DNA from: Parcubacteria group bacterium LiPW_15
GTDB lineage: Bacteria > Patescibacteriota > Minisyncoccia > UBA6257 > 2-01-FULL-56-20
Assembly (NCBI GenBank): GCA_007375645.1
Contig: VMER01000001.1
Span: 209,211 to 273,210, forward strand
DNA length: 64,000 bases
Reading direction: 5' to 3'
Part shown: piece after piece, positions 6,256-24,245 of the stretch
Position numbering within the stretch: the stretch's first letter is position 1
How the letters are laid out: every line of letters starts with the position of its first letter
The notes under the pieces: model-generated
Told to the model about the DNA's origin: nothing
Database searches by the model: none
Seen by the model: only the letters and a program-made list of their open reading frames with translations
Made by a program: the position numbers and the translations under genes

Positions 6256-6339
6256 GCACAGGTGGTAGAGCGGTCAAATACAAGAGACTGTAAATCTCTC
6301 GCCCATGTGGCTACGCAGGTTCGAATCCTGCCCTGTGCA
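6256..6339 (+). tRNA. tRNA-Tyr (anticodon GTA), long variable arm
   Basis: Manual fold: acceptor GCACAGG/CCTGTGC, 3-bp D-stem with GAGCGGTCAAA loop (nearly identical to E. coli tRNA-Tyr), anticodon stem AGAGA/TCTCT with loop CTGTAAA, long variable arm, T-arm GCAGG-TTCGAAT-CCTGC, discriminator A; CCA not encoded. Confidence 0.8.
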
Positions 6340-18742: not shown

Positions 18743-19333
18743 TTACGAAATGAGGTCGGCGAGTACCTTGCCCCAGTCCTTGCGCCTGTCCCCGCACAGA
18801 GGAGCCTGTACGAACACCGCCTTAGCGCCGTTAATCGTGAAGCTGGAAATCTCTCCGTTCGCAAAGTAGCTCGGGTTCAAGCACTCGATGGCCGCGATCA
18901 TGGCGTCTTCGTGGTGGTTTCCGTCCGTGACCATGGCCACGAACTTTGCCCCAAGGCTGGCCGCCTTGAGCGCAATCACGAAGCCGTAGGGAACCTCCTC
19001 TCCCGGTCTGTACACTCCCGGTCCGATCGTTTTCATGCTCACCGGCATCATCATGTCGGTGAGGACGACCTCAAACTCGAAAGGAATGACGGACTTGGTC
19101 TCGGATTCCCTTAACGCTTGCCAGTAGGCGCTCCACTCCCTGTCGGAATAATCCGGCTTCTCGGCGAAGCCAGCATCAATGAGGAGGCGCTGGACGTTGT
19201 CGGCATCGACTTTCTTTCTCATGATGTCCATAGCCTCATCGAACGACGAGATGATAGTGAGATCGTGGCCCTTGAGGGTCGCTCTAGCAGACTCGTGGTT
19301 GAATCGACTGTTGTCGATCACGAGAATCTTCAT
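18743..19333 (-). CDS. Receiver (REC)-like domain protein with C-terminal extension (high-GC cassette)
   Basis: Start at MKILVIDNS with AGGAG RBS 5 nt upstream; VVLTDMMMP resembles the REC phospho-acceptor region; own promoter TTGACC-17-TATACT at about 19455-19485 on the minus strand. Confidence 0.5.
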   Translation of the reverse strand: MKILVIDNSRFNHESARATLKGHDLTIISSFDEAMDIMRKKVDADNVQRLLIDAGFAEKPDYSDREWSAYWQALRESETKSVIPFEFEVVLTDMMMPVSMKTIGPGVYRPGEEVPYGFVIALKAASLGAKFVAMVTDGNHHEDAMIAAIECLNPSYFANGEISSFTINGAKAVFVQAPLCGDRRKDWGKVLADLIS

Positions 19334-19533
19334 CGCTTCTCCTGCCTTTCTTTTGAATGTGCGGTAAGCCTGTTTCAGCTTTGTGCGGAAAGTATAATAT
19401 ATTTTCACATTTTGGTCAAGTCATATAGTTTCGCTAAAAAGAAATGCCCCGACCATTTGGTCGGGGCATACAAAGAACTACAAGGAGGTTTCGCGGAACT
19501 TCTCCCAAAGCGGCAACTCACCGCGCATGAACA

Positions 19534-20724
19534 TCATCTTTTCCTGTTCAGAAGGAGTAGGGCGGAAATGACGAGTATCGCGCCAGAAGCCTGCCATGCG
19601 AAACCGATCGAAATATGTTTGGCAACATAGCCGCTTGCAACCAGTCCGATCATTCCTCCTACGTGATGGGAAATCGAGTCCAGAGAGATGAGCGTGGCGC
19701 GCTCCGCAGACGGAATATTGTTATTGAGATGCAGATTCTTCACCGGGCTGAAAAACCCGCGCGCGAACTCATGGAACATGAAGAATGCGATTGCCGGCCA
19801 GAAACTGCCGCAGAGCGCGGTTGCGAATATTCCGGCGCCGATCGCGATCTGGACCAGATTCAACGACTTTTCCGCGCAACCGATCTTTCTTATGAACCAA
19901 GGCGAGGCGGTTGCTCCAAGGATCGTCGCTATAGATATCCCCGCGAAGATAAACCCCAGATAGGTGTTCGAGGGAAGCAGATTTCCAAAGAATATCTGCC
20001 ACTGCATATTCGGCGCCTGCACGGCAACGAACTGCGCGAAGCCGGTAAGCAGAACGAACCTTACGACTCGATTGCCTCTGGCATATCGAACACTGGCCGA
20101 TACTGTTTCCGCCATCGCCCGCACATTCTTGGCAACAGAAAATGTTTTCCGCACAAAACCGTCTTCCTTCATATAAAAGACGGCAAGAATTCCCGCCAAG
20201 AATGAGGTGCTGCCCCCGACGATCCAAGGAAGCGAGGGATGCACGCTCGCCGCATATGCCCCGATCACGGAAGAGAAGATCGATACCGCGCTAAACAGCT
20301 GTTGGTCGCGGGTAAACACAATGTTTACCCCCTCGTCGCATCCTTGCTGCTTTAACCGATCAATGACCCAGGCCTGAAATGCGCCGCTCGCAAAAGTAGC
20401 GCCGACCGCGGAGATAACTTCCGCTAAGACAAATCCCCAGAATGTGTCGGTTATGGCGTATAGGAACATGCCGGCGGAGAACAACACGCAAGAAATGACG
20501 TACGATGCTTTCCGGCCGAACACGTCCGCGAAAGCCCCGGTCGGAATCTCGCAAACGAACAACGTAGAAAAGAAAAAGAAGTTCACCATGTTGATCTCTA
20601 GAAGATCCAAGCCCTTGGCCCTGAGGAATACCACATAGGTCGCGGCAATAAGTCCCATGCCAAAGGCAGAGACGGATTTGAGAATCAAGTAGTGACGGAT
20701 CGTCTGCCTAGCCTCGTGATTCAT
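19534..20724 (-). CDS. MFS transporter
   Basis: 396 aa, 12 TM, MFS signature. Confidence 0.85.
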   Translation of the reverse strand: MNHEARQTIRHYLILKSVSAFGMGLIAATYVVFLRAKGLDLLEINMVNFFFFSTLFVCEIPTGAFADVFGRKASYVISCVLFSAGMFLYAITDTFWGFVLAEVISAVGATFASGAFQAWVIDRLKQQGCDEGVNIVFTRDQQLFSAVSIFSSVIGAYAASVHPSLPWIVGGSTSFLAGILAVFYMKEDGFVRKTFSVAKNVRAMAETVSASVRYARGNRVVRFVLLTGFAQFVAVQAPNMQWQIFFGNLLPSNTYLGFIFAGISIATILGATASPWFIRKIGCAEKSLNLVQIAIGAGIFATALCGSFWPAIAFFMFHEFARGFFSPVKNLHLNNNIPSAERATLISLDSISHHVGGMIGLVASGYVAKHISIGFAWQASGAILVISALLLLNRKR

Positions 20725-21017
20725 AGCTTCCTCCTTTTCAAAGTGCTGTTGCTGAACAAAAAAACCTCGGCTTTTCGTTCAGCCGAGGTTTTTGAAAAAG
20801 TGTTTAGAAAATATGGTTATTTCCTGTTAAATACTTCAAGAATCGCGGCTGAATAAAAAGATTGGCCAAAAGAACCACAAAGGTAGACTTTCTGGTCGGT
20901 CGCAATATTCATATGACGATTCACTTTTACCATGGTTTGGATTTTAACATATACCAAAATACTGTCAAGTAGATAGCTCTCTTCGGTATACACCGTAGAT
21001 AACGTAAAAAATCTAAA

Positions 21018-21070
21018 TTGGTTATCCTCCCGATCTGTTGGCGCGCTTCCCCTTCTGTCGGTATTAAACA
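21018..21070. repeat. Degenerate direct duplicate of the typA 3' end (includes a stop-codon copy) on the far side of an inserted cassette
   Basis: Aligns at about 75-80% identity to 22145-22195 (ttatcc[c/t]ccc...gttggcgcgcttc...tcggt...aaa). Confidence 0.5.
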
Positions 21071-21119
21071 AAAAAACCCGACCTTTCGGTCGGGGCGCGA
21101 TTGCGAGAAAATAAACTGA

Positions 21120-22052
21120 TCAGAGAGGTTTGGCCTGAAGGAGCTTCTTAGCTTTCTCTCTCAGGTCTTCGGGGACGTCCTCATCATTGATGACGGCGAG
21201 GATATCCTCCTTATCGGGATCAAACTTCTTGAGCTTGTTGAAGGCTCCCCGCTTCAAGTCATCCGGAACGAACTTGTCCCGGAGAATGTCGAAAAGATAG
21301 CATTCGTCAAAATTGCGCTTTTTGAACTCCCTGAAGGCTCCCCGCTTCAGATCATCCGGAATGAACTGCCCACAGATGATGTCGAAGAGATCCTCCGTAT
21401 CGATATCACGCTTTTTGAACTCCCTGAAGGCTTTGCGTTTCAGATCATCCGGAATGAACTGTCCATAGATGATACCGAAGAAATAGCTCTCATAGGAGAA
21501 ACGAGGCTTCTTGAGCTCCTTAAGAGCTTCCCACTTCAAGTTATCCGGAACGGACCGTCCGCAGATAATGTTGAAGAGATTGTTTTCCCTAAGGTTGCAC
21601 TTCTTGAGCTCTTCGAAGGCTTCCAGTTTTAGATCATCAGGAACGGACTCTTCGTGGATGATATCGAGGAGACCGTTTATAATAATGCCACGCTTCTTGA
21701 GCTCCTCGAAGACTCGACGCTTCCAGGAAACATCGGGATGGTTCTGAAGGATCCAAAAAAGATCATCCGTCCGGAAGAACTGGAACATCTTGCCCCAGTT
21801 GGCGTCGAATCCCTCCTCGAGCTTCTTCCGGATCGGCTCCGGAAAGAGAGCGATATCCCAGAAACGGCGCTCTTCCTGTTCTCTCCCCACGCCTTGCTGG
21901 ATACCGTAGAAAGCACGAATTGCTCCGTGACCAAGGAAATCGATTCCTCGCGAGCTCTGAAGAACATCTTTCCCGTGCGAAGAGAAGACCTCCGCGTCGG
22001 TCAGGAAGAGAATCTCTCCCCGACATTCGATCCAGGAGACGAACTCACACAT
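21120..22052 (-). CDS. Tandem-repeat protein (about six 31-aa repeats, ...LFDIICGQFIPDDLKRGAFREFKKR...), high-GC cassette
   Basis: 310 aa; repeats visible in protein and as a 93-bp DNA periodicity at about 21150-21750; N-terminal 130 aa unique; own promoter and terminator (21073-21100). Confidence 0.65.
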   Translation of the reverse strand: MCEFVSWIECRGEILFLTDAEVFSSHGKDVLQSSRGIDFLGHGAIRAFYGIQQGVGREQEERRFWDIALFPEPIRKKLEEGFDANWGKMFQFFRTDDLFWILQNHPDVSWKRRVFEELKKRGIIINGLLDIIHEESVPDDLKLEAFEELKKCNLRENNLFNIICGRSVPDNLKWEALKELKKPRFSYESYFFGIIYGQFIPDDLKRKAFREFKKRDIDTEDLFDIICGQFIPDDLKRGAFREFKKRNFDECYLFDILRDKFVPDDLKRGAFNKLKKFDPDKEDILAVINDEDVPEDLREKAKKLLQAKPL

Positions 22053-22112
22053 GTCTCAAGACCCTCCCTTTCTCTCTATTCCTTCTTATTCGGTTGGAAT
22101 TGAACTGCCCGG

Positions 22113-22142
22113 ATTATACTAATTTTAGAGGAGGATGTCAAA
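22113..22142 (-). promoter_or_regulatory. Sigma70-like promoter (TTGACA-18-TATAAT) for the tandem-repeat protein gene
   Basis: Reverse complement reads ttgaca tcctcctctaaaattag tataat. Confidence 0.4.
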
Positions 22143-22146
22143 ACAA

Positions 22147-23967
22147 TTATCCCCCCGAACGGTTGGCGCGCTTCTCGTCTATTTCGGTCAAATAAATTTT
22201 GCGCATCCGGATGGATTTCGGGGTCACCTCCACCAATTCATCATCCCCGATATATTCCAAAGAATCTTCAAGCGATAAGGTGCGCGGAACTTTCAAAAAT
22301 TCCATTCCGCCCACGCCCTTGGAGCGCATGTTGGAAAGCTGTTTTTCTTTGCAAACGTTCACACGGATATCCATTGCTTTGGCGTTCTGGCCCACGATCT
22401 CTCCTTCGTAAACTTCAAGGCCAGGACTGATAAAAAGTTCTCCCCTGTCTTCGGAACCCATCATTCCGTAAGCGCGGGTGATACCGGACTCGGAAGCAAC
22501 CAGACTTCCGTGCGGGTTGGATTCAAAGTCCCCCTTATATTCTTCGTAATCTTCAAAAATGGAATTCATTATTCCCATTCCTTTGGTCTTGGTCATAAAT
22601 ATAGTGCGCAACCCGATGAGGCCCCGGGTCGGCACCAAAAAGTCCATATAGGCCATGCTGTTTTCCACGCGCATGTCTTTCATGTTGCCCTTACGCTTGC
22701 CCATCTCTTCGATGACCACGCCGGTCGCGTCTTCCGGAACCTCCACGGACAAAACTTCCATCGGTTCAAGTTTCTTTCCGTTCTTCTCGTGGAAAATAAC
22801 CTGCGGACGGGATACCTGGAATTCATAACCTTCCCGGCGCATCTTTTCGATAAGGATGGAAAGGTGGAGTTCGCCGCGTCCGGCAACTTCCCAAGTATCA
22901 AAGGTGTCGGTCGCGTTCACGCGCAAAGCCACGTCGGTATCTACTTCCTTGGCCAAACGCTCGGCCAAGTGCCTGGAGGTCACAAATTGGCCTTCCTTGC
23001 CCGCGAACGGAGAATTGTTAACCATAAAATTCATTTTCACGGTCGGCTCTTCAATATCTATGGTCGGAAGCGGCTGCGGATTGTCTTTGTCGGTGATAGT
23101 CTCGCCGATAGAAACATCCGTGATACCCGCGATAGCTACAATGTCTCCCGCGGTCGCTTCGTCCACATCCACACGCGCGAGTCCGTCAAAAAGCATCACG
23201 TTCGTGAGCGACGCTTTTTTGGTCACGCCGTCGCGGCCGATGTGCGCGACTTCTACGTTCTTTTTAAGAGTTCCGGAATAAAGCCTGCCGATGGCGATCT
23301 TGCCCTTATAGTTGTCGTAAAAAAGATTAACGGTGAGCATCTGAAGGGGCTTGGTCTCATCCACTACCGGAGACGGAATATATTTTATTATCGTATCGAA
23401 AACCGGACGGATATCCGTCATCTCCGAGAGCTCGTGCGCATAACCGGCTTTCCCTTGCGCCCCGGAAGCGTAAACCACCGGAAACTCCGCCTGCTCGTCG
23501 GAAGCGCCAAGCTCGATGAAAAGATCGAAAGTGCGCTCCAAGGCCCAGTTCGGACGGGCGCCGGGCTTATCAATTTTATTTATAACTACGATAACTTTGT
23601 GTCCGGCCTGAATAGCTTTTTTTAAAACGAATTTGGTCTGCGGCATTGGACCCTCTTTGGCATCCACCAAAAGCAAAATACCGTCCACCATGCGCATAAT
23701 GCGCTCCACTTCTCCGCCGAAATCGGCGTGGCCCGGGGTGTCCACTATATTTATCTTGATTCCCCCGTAGTGAACCGCGGCATTTTTGGAAAATATGGTG
23801 ATTCCCCGCTCTCTTTCGAGTTCGTTGGAATCCATAATGAGCGTGTCATCGGCGCCGGTCTTCAATTTAAAATCCGCGGACTGCTTCAAAAGAGCATCCA
23901 CGAGAGTGGTCTTGCCGTGGTCAACATGGGCAATTATTGCGATGTTTCGTATGTTTTTTGGGTCCAT
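22147..23967 (-). CDS. typA: Translational GTPase TypA/BipA
   Basis: G-domain [21 protein letters not shown]; EF-G-like domains; start chosen at [10 protein letters not shown] (the ORF track extends 22 codons upstream without a stop). Confidence 0.93.
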
Positions 23968-24245
23968 AGTAGTCTTGATTTTTAATTCGCGAACGTTGAC
24001 GGGAAGGGGGTCGGGGAAACGGGAGCCCGCCACAGCGGGCAGAAGCTATATAATCCATCCGCTAAAGCGAATGGTGGCCGTGTAGGAAACTTACTCTCAA
24101 TTGGCAGCGAGGAGAAAATAGGTATTAGATATTTTATCCGAGCGAACCAATTGACAGCTCGCTGTCTAACCGAGAGGTTGTGAGGGAGCGAAGCGACGTC
24201 TAGGTGCGCGATTATTGCGATATTTCGTATATTTTTGGGATCCAT
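23968..24245 (-). repeat. About 215-bp GC-rich structured insert bounded by an imperfect duplicate of the typA 5' end (ATGGATCCCAAAAATATACGAAATATCGCAATAATCGCGCAC)
   Basis: 24200-24245 on the minus strand is about 86% identical to the true typA start at 23925-23967; the insert contains several stem-loops (GGCAGCGAG...CTCGCTGTC, CCATCCGC-TAAA-GCGAATGG). Confidence 0.5.

Follow-up and report, generated by a model that had tools for sequence, protein, structure and literature searches.

A two-module repeat protein of a mainly phage-borne family on an insertion cassette at the typA 3' end in Parcubacteria

Within a 64-kb stretch of the genome of Parcubacteria group bacterium LiPW_15 (64,000 nucleotides of contig VMER01000001.1; hereafter the window), we analysed an open reading frame (ORF) for a protein of 310 amino acids (aa) located downstream of typA. 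Taken as a whole, the locus is probably best explained by a two-module protein encoded on a recombinase-free cassette, which came from a mainly phage-borne gene pool, was exchanged between strains and has kept its seven repeat units fixed. We hold the structural and evolutionary parts of this reading with high confidence. The functional part, in which the product is a phage-type accessory protein whose small active or docking domain is carried by a target-binding scaffold, stands at slightly below an even chance.

The protein is an exact match to NCBI entry TSC60381.1 ('hypothetical protein LiPW15_259') on a 481-kb contig of the LiPW_15 metagenome-assembled genome (MAG). This window form was found on two contigs; a further 10, from several groundwater metagenomes, carry a 98%-identical form (P0001), and seven carry a 71%-identical form (P0002). 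Both relatives are free of insertions and deletions (indels) and lie downstream of typA as in the window. Thus, 19 of 19 independent contigs from three lineages (typA 89-95% identical at the nucleotide level) encode exactly 310 aa with zero indels. Compared with the 71%-identical syntenic orthologue of sister lineage L001, the ratio of nonsynonymous to synonymous divergence (dN/dS) was 0.22 at a dS of 0.82, the adjoining typA having a dS of 0.64 in the same comparison. Because of this low dN/dS, the ORF is a real gene under purifying selection.

The fold was predicted with AlphaFold2. With three sequences only, the repeats were modelled well and the N-terminus was not. With a family alignment of 150 sequences, the model reached a predicted local distance difference test score (pLDDT) of 94.8 and a predicted template modelling score (pTM) of 0.83. 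In this model, a small alpha/beta domain with short helices and three strands (5-10, 13-16 and 57-61) occupies residues 1-94, and residues 95-306 form fourteen helices, two per unit, arranged as helical hairpins in an alpha-solenoid. The protein is thereby modelled as a seven-unit alpha-solenoid capped by an N-terminal domain (N-domain) of ~94 aa. Alpha-solenoids consist of tandem units of two to three helices and ~25-45 aa, stacked into an elongated superhelix, and the seven predicted two-helix units belong to this class in its generic sense. An initial annotation of the window had suggested an alpha-helical solenoid, in agreement with the model, in which each 31-aa unit contributes two helices.

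The same annotation had called the repeats HEAT/TPR-like or 'sporulation-type'. Support for the latter was not found, and membership of the former was not demonstrated. A hmmscan search of the protein against Pfam at E <= 10 returned two sub-threshold, unrelated matches only and no HEAT, TPR or ARM model; one distant family member with differing repeats does match Pfam HEAT_2. Likewise, Foldseek searches against the PDB (with two models) and BFVD returned only generic helical-repeat proteins, all at E > 0.01 and with TM-scores of 0.1-0.45. The top 50 matches listed were all helical-repeat or solenoid proteins (designed repeats, PPR, TPR, HEAT, Sel1, 'leucine-rich repeat variant'). Besides other HEAT, PPR and TPR proteins, the matches listed include E. 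coli YibA (PDB 1oyz), a HEAT-like/PBS-lyase-type solenoid of ~31-residue helical hairpins, with which the window protein shares the stacked tandem 31-aa helix-turn-helix units. It differs from these solenoids not only in the missing Pfam match and the weak Foldseek scores, but also in its family-specific repeat signature and its undescribed N-domain cap.

The N-terminal domain and its phage-borne family

An exhaustive HMMER search over 1.84 billion cluster representatives (clusters at 50% identity) revealed 488 representatives with the N-domain at E <= 1e-3 and 265 at E <= 1e-10. Among the 150 matches listed, which are 74 to 382 aa long, nearly all start at or near the first residue of the protein. 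A Met-Cys or Val-Cys start was present in 127 of 152 family sequences. Conservation among the aligned members was 99% for Pro71, 98% for His42, 95% for Ser6, 91% each for Met1, Trp7 and Asp38, 89% for Glu60 and 85% for Cys2; Phe4, Leu17-Thr18-Asp19, Gly41, Gly43-Ala44-Ile45-Arg46 and Phe64 are conserved as well, so that His42 is part of a GHGAIR motif. The C-termini vary. Many members have one to seven copies of a 29-31-aa unit with the consensus DLxxIIC..P..[WL]K.KA...L; in others, this part consists of unrelated helical repeats, MORN repeats or a LuxR-type helix-turn-helix (HTH), and some have nothing there, the stand-alone N-domain proteins having 49-98 aa.

The N-domain had no match in Pfam, NCBIfam, PHROGs or PADLOC when the protein and 150 members were searched for a consistent family, and none of the 150 members consistently matched the defence-system hidden Markov models (HMMs) of PADLOC. 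PDB sequence searches with full-length and N-domain profiles gave no match; the best, a 'CGHG' stretch of the PhzF family (E = 1.3), was discarded. Assignments to GIY-YIG, HNH, PD-(D/E)xK or SGNH were dropped by eye because motif spacing or conservation was unsuitable. Literature searches found no description of the family, whose members are labelled 'hypothetical protein' in public sources. Judged from these comparisons, this is an undescribed domain that defines a sizeable unannotated family.

Variation within the family offers a hint at its function. In a test uncorrected for phylogeny, Cys2 tends to be lost together with Gly43 (p = 2e-8) and with Glu60 (p = 3e-6), with His42 kept. This pattern of joint loss, as in enzyme families with inactive paralogues, suggests a site composed of Cys2, Ser6, His42-Gly43 and Glu60. 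Methionine aminopeptidase is expected to remove a Met that precedes Cys. Given this specificity and the Met-Cys start, Cys2 would be the N-terminal residue of the mature protein. A near-invariant Met-Cys at the start of the first beta-strand is reminiscent of the cysteine N-terminal nucleophile (Cys-Ntn) hydrolases, such as class II glutamine amidotransferases and choloylglycine hydrolase. However, these enzymes have a four-layer alpha-beta-beta-alpha sandwich of ~200 aa, compared with three short strands in ~94 aa here, a predicted fold that is too small for an Ntn hydrolase. Sequence searches gave no match between them and the N-domain.

Alternatively, the N-domain might be non-catalytic, serving as a sensor, dimerisation or docking module with a structural or metal-binding Cys, in which case the protein would be a pure adaptor. 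We consider this a serious contender, if still short of an even chance. It would suit a domain that is small (three strands and short helices), occurs alone in proteins of 49-98 aa and elsewhere precedes C-terminal modules of widely differing kinds, a LuxR-type HTH among them. Against it, a minority of members have lost Cys2, Gly43 and Glu60 together while His42 is near-invariant, which resembles enzyme/pseudo-enzyme pairs, although it is not decisive.

One family member, P0048 (112 aa), is a chimera of the N-domain and the C-terminal two-thirds of a LuxR/GerE HTH, joined exactly at the conserved 'LPxEIAEK' helix of the family; a Pfam GerE match of one family member (E = 6.5e-11) was attributed to it. 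The junction points to recombination inside the helix, and the N-domain may also have been put to regulatory use.

To map the distribution of the family, back-translated motifs were scanned against IMG/VR viral contigs (~4-260 kb) and GTDB (one genome per species). The scan recovered 64 loci on viral contigs and 14 in species genomes, the latter mostly from Patescibacteria (Yanofsky-, Portnoy-, Parcu- and Saccharibacteria). The larger neighbours at the viral loci encode DnaB-type helicases, primase/helicases, exonucleases, Erf-type annealing proteins, replication initiators and DNA methyltransferases. The IMG/VR carriers are genuine phages, in which the family gene lies next to replication and recombination genes in the early/replication region. 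A tblastn search of 50,697 GenBank phage records gave no match, i.e., no cultured or GenBank phage carrier. In genomes of the candidate phyla radiation (CPR), family members stand alone between housekeeping genes (such as Mur ligases, RNase PH, Hsp70/GrpE, PheS/T, TsaD/E), and the window agrees with this. An N-domain HMM run over the window detected no other family or phage gene.

Several carriers have more than one copy. Two adjacent or nearby paralogues with differing C-terminal lengths were seen in phage contigs L023 (5011-6627), L024 (4837-6711), L038, L040 and L079, and the Patescibacteria MAG JAHJAU01 has three copies of 270-272 aa on separate contigs (L010, L011, L014). A 620-aa gene upstream of the homologue in Parcubacteria contig L016 was examined and is not typA.

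Insertion and exchange at the end of typA

In the window, the ORF lies between two direct repeats (Table 1). Copy B is the end of functional typA and copy B' a relic typA end that runs on into the ancestral downstream flank. Their three differences are all synonymous in the typA frame, and by our own calculation ~2e-5 such 25/28 pairs would be expected by chance in 6 kb. B' is also present in the related lineage L085. The repeats bracket exactly a promoter, the ORF and a terminator (~1.1 kb). The promoter is kept in L001, and L085 matches the window at all 94 nt of the intergenic stretch. Rfam gave no match in or around this unit.

Table 1 Features of the typA-associated cassette and its product, in window positions
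Feature	Position	Strand	Remarks
ORF of 310-aa protein	21120..22052	minus	ATG start; stop codon included
N-terminal alpha/beta domain	21771..22052	minus	residues 1-94 (MCEFVSWIE...FLTD...GHGAIR...E60...FW...P71); family-defining
Repeat 1	21675..21770	minus	residues 95-126, 32 aa, degenerate: HPDVSWKRRVFEELKK; predicted helices 95-104, 108-121
Repeat 2	21582..21674	minus	residues 127-157; predicted helices 125-133, 139-150
Repeat 3	21486..21581	minus	residues 158-189, 32 aa; predicted helices 156-163, 170-180
Repeat 4	21393..21485	minus	residues 190-220; predicted helices 189-196, 202-213
Repeat 5	21300..21392	minus	residues 221-251; predicted helices 219-226, 233-244
Repeat 6	21207..21299	minus	residues 252-282; predicted helices 250-258, 264-275
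Repeat 7	21123..21206	minus	residues 283-310, C-terminal cap, PEDLR; predicted helices 281-289, 295-306
typA/bipA	22147..23967	minus	606 aa; insertion target at 3' end; Pfam GTP_EFTU, EFG_C, BipA_C on orthologues; NCBI 'GTP-binding protein'
Direct-repeat copy B	22147..22174	minus	last 28 nt of functional typA (KRANRSGG, stop); repeat search and sequence reading
Direct-repeat copy B'	21022..21049	minus	relic typA 3' end, 25/28 identical to B; contiguous with ancestral downstream flank
Sigma-70-type promoter	22113..22141	minus	TTGACA-17 nt-TATAAT; 12/12 consensus; 6 nt past typA stop
Shine-Dalgarno-like GGGAGGG	22062..22068	minus	9 nt 5' of ATG; read from sequence
Intrinsic terminator	21077..21094	minus	CCCGACCGAAAGGTCGGG plus T-run; 7 stem pairs, 6 G-C; kept in L001 and L085

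Relatives that lack the gene were found through typA cluster members. In L098, the typA stop codon is directly followed by sequence homologous to the flank behind B' (flank, promoter and a 38-codon ORF), which represents an empty site. In L095-L097, typA abuts an FAD-oxidase gene with only 43 nt between them. An exact-pattern scan of JGI metagenomes for the empty site yielded one occupied contig only. With direct repeats at both ends, an unoccupied site and a history decoupled from that of the flanking gene, the comparison of sequences confirms what the initial annotation had proposed, namely an insertion cassette flanked by a duplication of the typA 3' end within a polymorphic interval. As the insertion duplicated ~28 nt of its end, typA would have stayed intact.

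Between the window and L085, typA has a dS of 0.27 (92 synonymous changes), compared with 0.038 for the cassette gene. Mismatches per 100 nt follow the same course, with ~5.3 in typA, ~1.6 over positions 22267-20968 and 14-20 just beyond. This low-mismatch block and the low dS of the cassette gene point to horizontal exchange of the cassette block between the two lineages long after their split.

Flanking direct repeats also occur around family genes inside phages. Defined as at least 21 of 24 matches within 400 nt on each side, they were present at 6 of 46 family genes in phage loci compared with 5 of 448 control genes (Fisher p = 1.5e-4). In L021, for example, the repeat copies the 5' end of a neighbouring HTH gene over 83 nt with 95% identity. 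As a separate observation, a perfect 33-nt repeat in L051 (5119-7023) and a near-perfect 40-nt repeat in L079 (234-2700) each occur four times in intergenic positions and bracket successive small genes including the family gene, like the boundary elements of the PeSL cassettes discussed below, here in uncultured phages.

Direct repeats that duplicate the 3' end of a gene are typical of integrase-mediated insertion. The cassette could accordingly be the last remnant of a prophage or integrative element whose attB overlapped the typA 3' end, with the repeats as attL and attR and the rest deleted. The mainly phage-borne family, the duplicated typA end with its intact target, the empty site in a relative and the purely synonymous differences between B and B', as expected if one copy is the donor allele, are all compatible with such an origin. 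Between the window repeats, however, the 1,125 bp hold a promoter, the ORF and a terminator, i.e., a single transcription unit of 1.1 kb, with no integrase, element gene or other phage remnant. Considering that one transcription unit alone lies between the repeats, a decayed prophage is less likely. Moreover, repeat-flanked single genes are found inside phage genomes as well, where prophage integration cannot explain them, and the low-divergence block coincides with the cassette. We therefore consider the remnant scenario unlikely and favour a recombinase-free cassette.

The closest described parallel is provided by the PeSL cassettes of T4-type phages, in which small non-essential ORFans have a strong sigma-70-like promoter on one side and a stem-loop terminator on the other (Arbiol et al. 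2010, PMC2839356; Comeau et al. 2014, PMC4122927). Recombination between short repeats on either side shuffles the PeSL genes, for which mini-circles have been proposed as transfer vectors (PMC2839356). The window cassette resembles them in being an ORFan with a 12/12 promoter and a stem-loop terminator, and its family resembles them in the enrichment of flanking direct repeats around phage genes. It differs in that its repeat is a duplicated end of a host gene (typA) rather than a promoter-terminator motif, and in that its host is a Parcubacteria chromosome rather than a T4-like hyperplastic region.

A small variable islet lies between typA and the FAD-oxidase gene. Its contents differ between the window, L085/L001, L098 and L095-L097, so that at least four states exist. 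In the window (18743-20724), it holds a major facilitator superfamily (MFS) transporter gene (19534-20724) and an ORF at 18743-19408 (221 aa in the ORF list, 196 aa in the call on L093) that looks receiver-like by eye. L085 and L001 have a GNAT acetyltransferase gene, L098 an acetyltransferase gene and a 258-aa ORF, and L095-L097 nothing.

Downstream of the cassette, a conserved unit (20757-20968, minus strand) comprises an 11/12 sigma-70 promoter (20968-20941), a 38-codon ORF (20933-20817; MVKVNRHMNI...FYSAAILEVFNRK), a strong terminator (~20763-20788) and a ribosome-binding site. Its ends are invariant and its middle differs at 14-20 positions per 100 nt between close strains, with apparent paired changes. 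It precedes the MFS transporter gene in the window and the acetyltransferase gene in L085, L001 and L098. The unit could be a leader peptide/attenuator or a small RNA; its sole Rfam signal was a sub-threshold His_leader match (27.6 bits, gathering score 49).

A second insertion, a 230-nt insert, was observed upstream of typA (23968-24245, minus strand). Here, a second copy of the initial 48 nt of typA, i.e., codons 1-16, lies 278 nt further upstream (24198-24245 and 23920-23967; 39/48 identical, differences mostly synonymous), and this upstream copy opens an 87-codon upstream ORF. The insertion also occurs in L001 (161 nt) and L095 (291 nt), where its interior was described as shorter, and is absent from L085 and L098. 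Given this distribution, it tracks neither relatedness nor the 3' cassette. The insert folds better than shuffled sequences (z = -3.4) and has no Rfam match. Across all 64 kb of the window, a single Rfam match reached the gathering threshold, a tRNA (6256-6339, plus strand).

A diverged and fixed repeat array

Both repeat searches recovered the 93-bp DNA period that the initial annotation had pointed out. Tandem Repeats Finder reported 4.2 copies at 21189-21580 with 71% matches, and a repeat search found five to six in-register copies at 21214-21726, spaced by 93/93/96/93 and 69-85% identical to a reference copy. When unit boundaries were anchored on a conserved Pro, seven units of 31-32 aa were obtained (the last at residues 283-310), in line with the six or more 31-aa repeats announced before. 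Together they span residues 95-310 (~216 aa), which extends the array beyond the 190 aa first assigned to it and reduces the unique N-terminus from 130 to ~94 aa.

The units share the signature L-F-x-I-I-C-G-x-x-[VI]-P-D-D-L-K-x-x-A-F-x-x-[FL]-K-K. Among repeats 2-6, pairwise identity is 43-75% for amino acids and 62-83% for DNA. The only close pair is repeats 4 and 5 (75% and 83%, respectively), and repeats 1 and 7 are degenerate. The array is rich in Asp (12%) and Lys (12.5%), as had been noted. The PDDLK motif, which had been called invariant, occurs in four of the seven units and is replaced by PDNLK, PEDLR and PDVSWK in the others, leaving only the Pro invariant. Hence, the 93-bp repeat is real and well beyond chance, and the array is diverged instead of near-perfect.

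Such an array could in principle mark a hypervariable protein of the contingency type, in which the 93-bp array grows and shrinks by slippage or unequal recombination and the unit count differs between strains. A tandem period exists, and the detectable unit count ranges from zero to seven among distant members of the wider family. However, the units are only 62-83% identical in DNA, the longest exact word common to any two of them is 24 nt, the window (two contigs), 98% (10) and 71% (seven) forms all have 310 aa with no indel, and each window unit best matches the unit at the same position in the 71% orthologue. Near-identical units and length polymorphism, the marks of contingency genes, are thus absent across the 19 contigs, and the hypervariable repeat number expected by the initial annotation is very improbable. 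An array that was collapsed or expanded in assembly is rejected as well. Apart from the presence of repeats, nothing would suggest it. The length is equal in NCBI MAG, Logan, MEGAHIT k141, SPAdes NODE and JGI contigs, which stem from different samples and assemblers, k-mer assembly would not be misled by repeats as diverged as these, and the ORF is intact and under purifying selection.

Based on the positional orthology of the units and the 310 aa without indels in the 98% and 71% forms, we conclude that the array had seven units already in the common ancestor of the window and 71% forms and has been stable since. By this comparison, it is an old, fixed structural array rather than a contingency locus. 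Within the protein, the solenoid is the faster-evolving part: all six amino acid differences from the 98% form fall within the repeats. It is thus the obvious candidate for a surface that binds proteins. Against the 71% orthologue, dN/dS is 0.25 for the repeats and 0.15 for the N-domain. Overall, the repeats noted in the initial annotation were real but overstated: the solenoid and the cassette hold, the latter through its empty site and decoupled divergence, and hypervariability does not.

Proposed mechanism and significance

We propose that the gene product is a cytoplasmic protein of two modules, the N-domain (1-94) and the seven-unit solenoid (95-310). Its gene is transcribed autonomously, with the ORF and its Shine-Dalgarno sequence placed between a consensus sigma-70 promoter and an intrinsic terminator, and the protein would be expressed constitutively from this promoter in the Parcubacteria host. 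On this reading, the 1.1-kb recombinase-free cassette entered the typA 3' end, duplicating ~28 nt, from a mainly phage-borne gene pool where the gene resides in replication/recombination modules and carries variable C-terminal repeat arrays. It was later exchanged between Parcubacteria strains, more recently than these diverged, and has been kept under purifying selection. Movement may proceed via recombination between the flanking direct repeats: excision would produce a circle with one repeat copy, which could re-enter at the conserved typA end by a homologous single crossover. The N-domain may act as the active or docking module, its site consisting of the free N-terminal Cys2 (Met removed), Ser6, Asp38, His42 and Glu60. 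The solenoid would be a protein-binding scaffold, as suggested by the general class of alpha-solenoid repeat proteins, and would give target specificity, plausibly in phage-host interaction.

Several points weigh against this proposal. The catalytic or docking role of the N-domain is read from conservation and covariation only, because no biochemical or structural homologue of the domain was found, and fusion to a LuxR-type HTH would suit a sensor or adaptor as well as an enzyme. In the phage loci, no conserved partner gene was found beside family members. In sister lineage L001, the gene occupies the same site without a downstream repeat copy, and L098 could represent a secondary deletion instead of a never-occupied site. 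Finally, a circular form or excision junction of the cassette is supposed, none having been observed.

A bolder generalization can be drawn from the same observations. The locus might exemplify an undescribed class of mobile cassettes, each with a single gene and no recombinase. Such cassettes would circulate between CPR bacteria and their phages, insert at conserved gene ends via short homologies and circular intermediates, and encode a small and novel enzyme domain of Cys-His-Glu type, displayed on helical-repeat scaffolds that diversify rapidly and acting in phage-host conflict (host take-over, or exclusion once domesticated). We offer this as speculation that is more likely wrong than right by a wide measure.

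Of the elements described here, the alpha-solenoid protein and the mobile ORFan cassette are known kinds, and the mostly phage-borne family with its undescribed N-domain is unannotated. The genomes of CPR/Patescibacteria and their phages are rich in unannotated genes; one such family, with at least 488 clusters at 50% identity, is now defined, with a recognisable N-domain, a fold model of high confidence and a clear link to phages. For mutagenesis, the near-invariant N-terminal Cys is a direct target, along with His42 and Glu60. With both an occupied and an empty site, a duplicated target and a cassette that is ~seven-fold younger than its flank at synonymous sites, the typA locus is an unusually clean natural case of gene gain in a reduced genome.

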